Shown piece after piece: positions 56,102-57,307 of a stretch of 64,000 bases of DNA (positions within the stretch are counted from its first letter, which is position 1; every line of letters starts with the position of its first letter). The DNA lies in NCBI RefSeq assembly GCF_988243305.1, contig NZ_OZ547136.1. One strand, given 5' to 3'. The notes beneath the pieces are model-generated. The model had not been told where the DNA came from and searched no databases. It worked only from the letters and a program-made list of their open reading frames with translations. Made by a program: the position numbers and the translations under genes.

Positions 56102-57307
56102 ACCGACTCCTGATTCAAATGTATGATGGTATTCATTGAACAGAACAATGGATCCCCCACCGTTGCTGACCGCAAAACATTTACGCGATTAATACTGCGC
56201 GTAATATAATTAAAAATCCAGCATTCTCAATCCATTACGAAATAAGATGGCATTACGGAATAGCCAGACTTTCTCGTGTTAACGTCCGACAAAATGCGTC
56301 ATTGACAGCGGTTTCTGTGGATTGACACATTTCATTCAGATAATGAATTAATGCTACTGCCGGACCAACCAGCAAACGGGCATTGTGTTCTGAAATCCAG
56401 GCTATTGATTCAACGTCAGCGACAGATCTGCGCTGTAAAAGAACTTGTAAAACAACGCAATAGAATTATCCGGAATGGTGGCGACTATGCACTAGAACAC
56501 CACAATTTCGCTCTCTCGGTAAGGCACTGTCACAGCATTCAACAGAATGTGACTTGCCAGATTTATTAGCGCCACCAGATGTTTAACCGGGTAACCACGA
56601 CCCAGTCGGGGATATATTCCATCTTCTCGCTGACATCATCAAGAATAAAAAGGTTTATCACACTCAGAGCAACGTTCTTCAGCAGGCGGGATAATTCTTC
56701 AACATTTAGAAGATGTGTTATTAAAGGCATACAAACTGGACGTATTGTATTTTCTTTTGGTGGTTGACCTAAGGTAGCAGTTTATCCTGATGCGCTGAGA
56801 TTTCTGTAATATCTACGTCAACATTCTCCTCGAATAGAAAATGCAGCCCCGGCAAGTGATTCACATTTTTTAACAAAACGTTGTTAGCGTGCCATTTTCA
56901 GAAGCTCTCCAAGAAAGCGAATTCTTTTCTCAAATTCTGCATTCTCAGACACAGCTTTCTACTCCATGGCAATGGCCCAAATACGAAGTTGCTCAGGATC
57001 ATTAGTGGTGCTGAGAAGTTAAATAACCATGCGGAGTACCACTCGTCATCACGTATTTATATATCATGAAGCTATTGTTGTGTTTTGTACATCAGTAGAT
57101 ATATTCTGATATACTCCTTTTGCTAGACATAACCTTTCACCTGCTTGCAAAGCTTCTGTGTTCTGACATTGCCAAATTGTTGCAATTCTGTATCCAGCCT
57201 TCTTTCAGTCATAGCTTCGGGCCGCGATAAGACTCACTGATCTGACCCTGATTCCTCTTGCAGACTTTATAGACCATTTAAAATGCAGTTTCGGTAATGA
57301 CTCCAAC

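Follow-up and report, generated by a model that had tools for sequence, protein, structure and literature searches.

The 1.2-kb interval between cobU and IS1 is probably a stack of genomic scars with one working promoter

We examined the interval between cobU and an IS1 copy (positions 56102–57292 of the window, which is the whole 64,000-nucleotide stretch of E. coli chromosomal DNA analysed) and found no intact gene in it, using its list of open reading frames (ORFs) and homology searches. With a probability of roughly 90%, we consider the interval to be a stack of genomic scars together with one working promoter. All of the remnants in the interval lie on the minus strand, and its parts and borders are as follows:

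55556–56101, minus strand: cobU (adenosylcobinamide kinase/guanylyltransferase), a 181-aa ORF that forms the left border
56102–56252, minus strand: 5' leader and promoter region of cobU, recognised from a Shine-Dalgarno sequence, a sigma-70 promoter and conservation
56253–56397, minus strand: 3' stump assigned to cbiG (cbiG'), the last 48 codons with the stop at 56253–56255, placed by DNA homology to the whole ORF
56398–56404, no strand: left junction of a CP4-44-type island with 7 nt of filler, the break falling between 56397 and 56398
56405–56593, minus strand: interior piece of an IS4-family transposase gene, 63 codons interrupted by one in-frame stop (tblastn)
56587–57030, minus strand: N-terminal fragment of an IS66-family tnpC (tnpC'), codons 1–151 of 511 (tblastn)
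57031–57148, minus strand: IS66-family tnpB-tnpC spacer and tail of tnpB (tnpB'), homologous to plasmid IS66 DNA up to 57148
57145–57292, minus strand: non-coding 3' end of an IS110-family element, by DNA homology that resumes at 58070 past IS1
57293–58060, minus strand: intact IS1 of 768 bp with InsA and InsB' ORFs, its ends and target duplication read from the sequence; right border
58070–58337, minus strand: rest of the IS110-family remnant, first 3' non-coding DNA and then transposase codons 284–337 of 339
Related loci outside the window (L006, 7608–8435; L013, 8001–8411; L009; L021–L023): N-terminal cbiG ORF

The ORFs of at least 60 aa in the interval measure 72, 62 and 62 aa. For a null expectation of ORF length, the interval was simulated 2000 times with a first-order Markov model; the longest ORF averaged 82.7 ± 21.6 aa and reached at least 72 aa in 65% of the simulations. 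Because the longest observed ORF (72 aa) falls under the simulated mean, the ORFs give no evidence of coding, in agreement with an earlier note on this DNA that had seen no convincing gene between cobU and IS1. Its remark that the short ORFs lack recognisable features was true by naked eye only, as homology searches identify the interval's parts. The note had also allowed for an intact small gene coming to light by homology; nothing intact did, although one gene stump of 48 codons was found. No product is expected to be encoded anywhere in 56253–57292.

We regard a functional small protein gene, either a 54-aa ORF at 56566–56730 (minus strand) or the 72-aa ORF at 56351–56569 (plus strand), as very improbable. 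PGAP does place a 'hypothetical protein' (WP_001128468.1) over the 54-aa ORF in some genomes, and the sequence is at least 99% conserved in about 3000 genomes, but this conservation stems from recent common descent within E. coli and not from constraint. Moreover, the 54-aa ORF is a part of the decayed IS66 tnpC' frame that contains no stop. The 72-aa ORF runs antisense over the cbiG'/IS4' junction, which makes it a chimera of two unrelated remnants, and it has an IS5 inside it in K-12. Both are at or under the length expected at random, and six-frame translations searched against Pfam and NCBIfam returned only a weak match to an IS4 transposase.

This weak match (NCBIfam NF033592, E 3e-4; 19–20 bits versus a cut-off of 115) falls in the IS4-family fragment, which in tblastn is 73% identical (E 7e-25) to residues 166–228 of an IS4-family transposase from a plasmid (L020). 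The fragment is a partial transposase, inverted repeats were not found, and it corresponds to yeeH' of K-12 together with the left portion of yoeG', with a PGAP annotation as pseudogene. The adjoining tnpC' fragment is 47% identical to TnpC of plasmid pESBL3171-IncF (tblastn, E 7e-24); the alignment is broken by three in-frame stops, and a poorly aligned middle stretch has two more. At the DNA level, 56588–57148 is ~71% identical to IS66-family elements on 279 plasmids. What accompanies this partial tnpC is only the tail of tnpB (the last ~20 codons, at 57126–57067, a weak match with E 1e-3), with no tnpA.

As tnpC' makes up most of K-12 yoeG', a small correction is that yoeG' is mainly an IS66-family tnpC fragment, beside a separate IS4-family fragment. 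Reading yoeG' as the N-terminal part of an IS4 transposase was rejected: the composite peptide is a chimera, a search with it yielded just two short matches (P0048, P0049) and no longer profile match, and plasmid comparisons gave IS66 tnpC'. Similarly, a match to IS4 transposase residues 28–48 at 57208–57140 (E 0.48) was dismissed because the DNA there is homologous to IS110 ends. A 'yoeG promoter' (TGTACA-17-CATGAT) is known as a SELEX-defined RNA-polymerase site (PMC3946193); by our reading of the sequence its hexamers are located at 57091–57063, inside the IS66 debris, and some transcription of this debris may occur.

The third family is represented by 57145–57292 and 58070–58325, whose DNA matches IS110-family elements of Pantoea and E. 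coli plasmids at 69–72% identity. Only codons 284–337 and about 250 nt of the 3' end are left of the element; the transposase part (58337–58176, K-12 yoeH') has two in-frame stops and 48% identity (tblastn, E 1.4e-9).

Two further observations concern these fragments. First, the IS110 remnant ends in a perfect hairpin (58304–58344; 18-nt arms, 5-nt loop) exactly at the point where the transposase is truncated. Since both arms translate to transposase residues 284–295, the hairpin is a short inverted duplication, and Rfam gave only a chance miRNA match to it. Second, positions 1–284 of a phage record (MG065683.1, 'Campylobacter phage B14', 2504 nt) are 100% identical to window positions 56492–56775, starting exactly at the K-12 IS5H insertion site. 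This looks like E. coli DNA that entered a phage record by contamination or as a chimera, and the spurious 284-nt identity was the only match of the interval in the phage collection.

IS1 itself is intact, with terminal sequences GGTAATGACTCC... and ...GCAGCATCACC, a 9-bp target duplication (TGCAGTTTC at 57284–57292 and 58061–58069), ORFs of 91 and 167 aa, and 95.8% identity to an annotated IS1. The closest genome, that of strain OW1E2, is 100% identical over the interval and is without IS1, and a contiguous match across the IS1 junction was present in 0 of 5426 complete E. coli genomes. The insertion is recent and strain-specific.

Several features of the wider neighbourhood were noted as well. 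Right of IS1, the exact FNR ChIP-chip site AAAACATGATTAAGGTCAAAAATG of the K-12 yeeH/yoeA interval (PMC1802558) is present at 58415–58438. Just 3' of it are AT-rich repeats, ATGACAATAATTAT and ATGAAAATAATTAT (58440–58515), which look Fur-box-like (14/19 by eye) and lie upstream of the expected start of yoeA, a TonB-dependent receptor gene. With up to three mismatches allowed, the Fur-box consensus had no match in these repeats or elsewhere in the window. The start of an IS3-family element, at 58521, precedes the place of the K-12 yoeA start codon by 29 nt. Compared with strain OW1E2, this element has 2270 bp inserted at 59259–61528, coding for a 507-aa reverse transcriptase/maturase of the group II intron type (Pfam RVT_1 1.5e-34, GIIM 1.3e-10). 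On the left, the cob genes have three tRNA-Asn genes (48365–48440, 50189–50264 and 52597–52672) within 4.3 kb. Islands classically integrate at tRNA-Asn genes; the CP4-44-type island adjoins none of these three.

From 56398 rightwards, the interval is the left end of that island, recognised from collinear, near-identical DNA between cobU and tmaR (yeeX) and made up of the IS fragments described above. The earlier note's suggestion of a decayed island or prophage boundary was therefore well placed. Homology to an island-free locus (L004), a pdu-bearing locus (L013) and a clade strain (L006) stops at 56392–56397, and a 120-nt probe across the junction was matched with at least 80% coverage in 3728 of the 5426 complete E. 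coli genomes. At the empty site, cbiG' continues for another 190 nt and abuts pduV' (Pfam PduV-EutP, 1.2e-26), with tmaR, yeeA and sbmC beyond it. Comparison with K-12 indicates that 280 nt of the empty site gave way to the island. The right breakpoint is the annotated CP4-44 end in K-12, and the left breakpoint (56397/56398) lies 41 nt inside the annotated K-12 island start (window position 56357).

Whether this boundary could be a true prophage attachment site, the attL of a P4-like prophage, deserves consideration, as K-12 is annotated with a 'cryptic prophage CP4-44', the cobU-yeeX region has been given as its insertion site (PMC3032704), and genes typical of P4 cargo, among them members of the YagK/YfjJ family, are found to the right. 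However, there is no integrase gene at this left end, the nearest tRNA gene (Asn, 52597–52672) is ~3.5 kb away from the junction, and no direct repeats were found between the island ends or at the junctions. In addition, the outermost island DNA comes from the interior of an IS4-family transposase gene and is truncated, which rules it out as the original terminus of an element. An attachment site is thus highly unlikely. Considering the lack of an adjacent tRNA, integrase or direct repeat, as well as the 280 nt that were replaced, the boundary is a replacement scar and not a phage attachment site, so this version of the prophage boundary does not hold.

Left of the junction, sequence comparison assigns the stump to cbiG' by transitive DNA homology through the intact ORF. 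The 48 codons alone gave no significant match to CbiG (E about 2). Their DNA is 97.8% identical to an E. coli locus (L013) up to exactly 56397, and the ORF is whole there (136 aa). In identical genomes, PGAP annotates 56253–56396 as a 'cobalamin biosynthesis protein' pseudogene without its N-terminus. The parent ORF, of 136–145 codons, corresponds to the N-terminal third of the cobalt-precorrin-5A hydrolase gene, cbiG. A profile built from the intact ORFs matches residues 1–122 of a full-length CbiG (P0061, 358 aa; E 1.2e-14), itself a protein that scores 636 bits on the NF004463 equivalog model and has the CbiG_N, CbiG_mid and CbiG_C domains, and in BLASTP an intact 144-aa Escherichia ORF is 37% identical to CbiG residues 1–~120 (E 3e-23). 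The profile found nothing among PDB sequences.

We first expected this remnant to be the 3' end of cbiP, the gene preceding cobU in Salmonella. When the 14 Cbi proteins from a complete operon (L015) were used in tblastn, only CbiG (residues 1–119) was significant at Escherichia loci, and CbiP was not found. A second small correction is therefore that the cobU-proximal remnant is cbiG' and not the cbiP expected from gene order. The Escherichia ORF is not a complete CbiG, as the best one (144–145 aa) covers only residues 1–~120, and a 119-aa form scores 21 bits against the NF004463 cut-off of 546.

We used megablast to compare the interval with the 5426 complete E. coli genomes, and 5403 of them were matched, although query coverage was at least 80% in only 3078. 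K-12 types matched at query positions 391–1191 and 1–394, split by IS5, and O157:H7 types were split near query position 265, with an IS insertion at about 56365. About 15% of the sampled matches covered only query positions 1–296 (~92% identity), and a few covered only 1–188 or 1–128. These partial-match classes indicate that only the first 130–300 nt are core DNA and that the remainder is a widespread accessory segment. The possibility of conserved core intergenic DNA, also raised by the earlier note, is accordingly true of the first 128–296 nt and not of the rest. The 1–187 or 1–188 pattern was seen in about 7% of sampled genomes. A third allele occurs in strain ET650 (L003, 6001–6358), where another deletion has joined nucleotide 188 upstream of cobU to mid-pduV' and removed cbiG' altogether.

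The part nearest to cobU contains the probable working promoter. At the DNA level, the window's cobU shares 99.4% identity with cobU as annotated in strain OW1E2, and it is the same gene as in K-12. An AGGAG Shine-Dalgarno sequence lies 7 nt before its ATG, and a promoter scan identified a sigma-70-type promoter (TTGAGA-16-TATATT, 10/12 matches) on the minus strand at 56230–56203. Its -35 hexamer is at 56230–56225 and its -10 hexamer at 56208–56203, which puts it between the stop of the upstream remnant ORF (56253–56255) and the cobU ATG. These hexamers are also those given for the constitutive cobUST promoter by genomic SELEX (PMC3946193). Furthermore, the first 128–188 nt upstream of cobU are kept in 5403/5426 complete E. 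coli genomes, the most-deleted natural variants included; these keep at least 128 nt, which reaches into the -35 hexamer.

We infer that the promoter and leader at 56102–56230 drive cobUST in this strain and that this promoter is the main driver of the operon, the ancestral riboswitch-controlled promoter being gone. In most E. coli, cobUST would likewise depend on a promoter within the 150 nt kept upstream of cobU. For the first ~150 nt, the cobUST promoter and leader, the idea of a regulatory region in the earlier note was thus apt. A match to the CbiJ C-terminus at 56173–56211, with E 0.009 in a search comprising many tests, was taken to be noise.

The least likely alternative is that the whole 1.2 kb is an extended cobUST regulatory region with a B12 riboswitch, an sRNA or a long leader: a cobalamin riboswitch does precede cbiG'-cobUST at ancestral-type loci, and there is the SELEX-defined RNA-polymerase site at 57091–57063 (PMC3946193), but an Rfam search of 55000–59000 at E≤1 gave no riboswitch or sRNA (no covariance-model match to the cobalamin riboswitch RF00174, and only a chance miRNA match), the riboswitch region was removed along with the island replacement, some strains have only 128–188 nt upstream of cobU, and IS insertions occur at 56492 in K-12 and at about 56365 in O157. 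As a positive control, the same Rfam search found the cobalamin riboswitch (109 bits) in an ancestral-type locus (L006).

Outside the window, pdu-bearing loci have the order pduB/A (divergent), pduF, pocR, cobalamin riboswitch (109 bits), cbiG' ORF, cobU, cobS and cobT; no cbi genes were found in the pdu-bearing Escherichia loci examined. In strain H7, which is island-free, the ORF measures 119 aa; a database search with this protein yielded intact forms (136–145 aa) from E. coli, E. albertii, E. marmotae and cryptic clades. The whole ORF is open in 7/7 divergent lineages sampled, with every indel in frame. Its variable sites number 55, 49 and 81 at codon positions 1, 2 and 3, an enrichment at the third position, and dN/dS is about 0.41, versus 0.03 for cobS. 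Under random substitution at the observed divergence, the ORF stayed stop-free in only 7–10% of simulations per pairwise path.

The open frame in seven lineages, the in-frame indels and the simulations together hint at weak selection for translation. It is conceivable, though rather doubtful, that the whole cbiG' ORF is not a dead stump and is instead kept translated in pdu-bearing Escherichia. If so, it might be a translated leader that shields riboswitch-controlled cobUST from Rho-dependent polarity, or a small protein with a new role. This reading does not concern the copy in the window, where only the non-functional last 48 codons are present. In E. albertii loci (L009–L011, 8436–8957), gene calling gave no cobU in the space between cbiG' and cobS and no cobT following cobS, and the window's cobU DNA aligned only partially to these loci (72–76% identity); the salvage genes may be decaying in E. 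albertii.

Taken as a stack of scars, the interval suggests the following order of events. An ancestor of Escherichia would have carried the pdu operon, pduF, pocR, the B12 riboswitch, cbiA-P and cobUST in the order usual for enteric bacteria. The cbi genes would then have been deleted, leaving only an N-terminal cbiG' stump of 136–145 codons before cobU. Such a state is still found in E. albertii and E. marmotae, as well as in cryptic clades and some E. coli. The stretch from mid-cbiG' to mid-pduV' would next have been replaced, in most E. coli, by a CP4-44-type island, unless a plain deletion made the same cut, as it may have in island-free strains. The left end of the island would already have been riddled by insertion sequences truncating one another, in the order IS110-type, IS66-type, IS4-type. 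Last, IS1 would have landed recently in the IS110 remnant of this strain.

Parsed in this way, the series of scars runs from the loss of cbi, through the loss of pdu or gain of the island and the pile-up of insertion sequences, to the recent IS1, and shows how the B12 and propanediol locus of Escherichia decayed step by step. Pseudogenes had been annotated here in K-12 and by PGAP, and the feature was known in this sense; the remainder is routine refinement and matters little overall.

Comparison with CP4-44 of K-12, to which the earlier note had pointed, was informative, with collinear DNA and a common junction. The annotated cryptic prophage of MG1655 (NC_000913.3, 2066020–2078748) has the same DNA at its left end, with identities of 98.8% over 56102–56495, 99.75% over 56492–57292 and 98.9% over 58061–58520. 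Its pseudogenes correspond to 56405–56491 (yeeH', b4639), 56498–57030 (yoeG', b4640) and 58176–58334 (yoeH', b4641). Unlike the window, K-12 has IS5H at 56492–56495 (site CTAG) and no IS1 at 57293, and it continues into yoeA where the window has an IS3-family element from 58521.

With respect to the three IS families, the pieces in the window resemble plasmid elements (73%, 47% and 48% protein identity for IS4, IS66 and IS110, and about 70% DNA identity). In contrast to intact members, they are fragments of 63, 151 and 54 codons, each truncated by its neighbour. Because they are partial, have in-frame stops and are without paired terminal repeats, they cannot be mobile. Like enterobacterial cbiG, the intact Escherichia ORF lies 3' of pocR and the cobalamin riboswitch, as cbi genes do, whereas enterobacterial CbiG has three domains and about 350 aa and the Escherichia ORF is without CbiG_mid and CbiG_C.

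Finally, Lawrence and Roth (Genetics, 1996) reportedly described how cbi and pdu genes were lost from the E. coli lineage, with only cobUST retained. The cbiG' and pduV' remnants would be the physical scars of this loss. In contrast to that account, many Escherichia, some E. coli included, keep pdu, pocR and the riboswitch and are missing only cbi, which argues that the loss took place in at least two steps.
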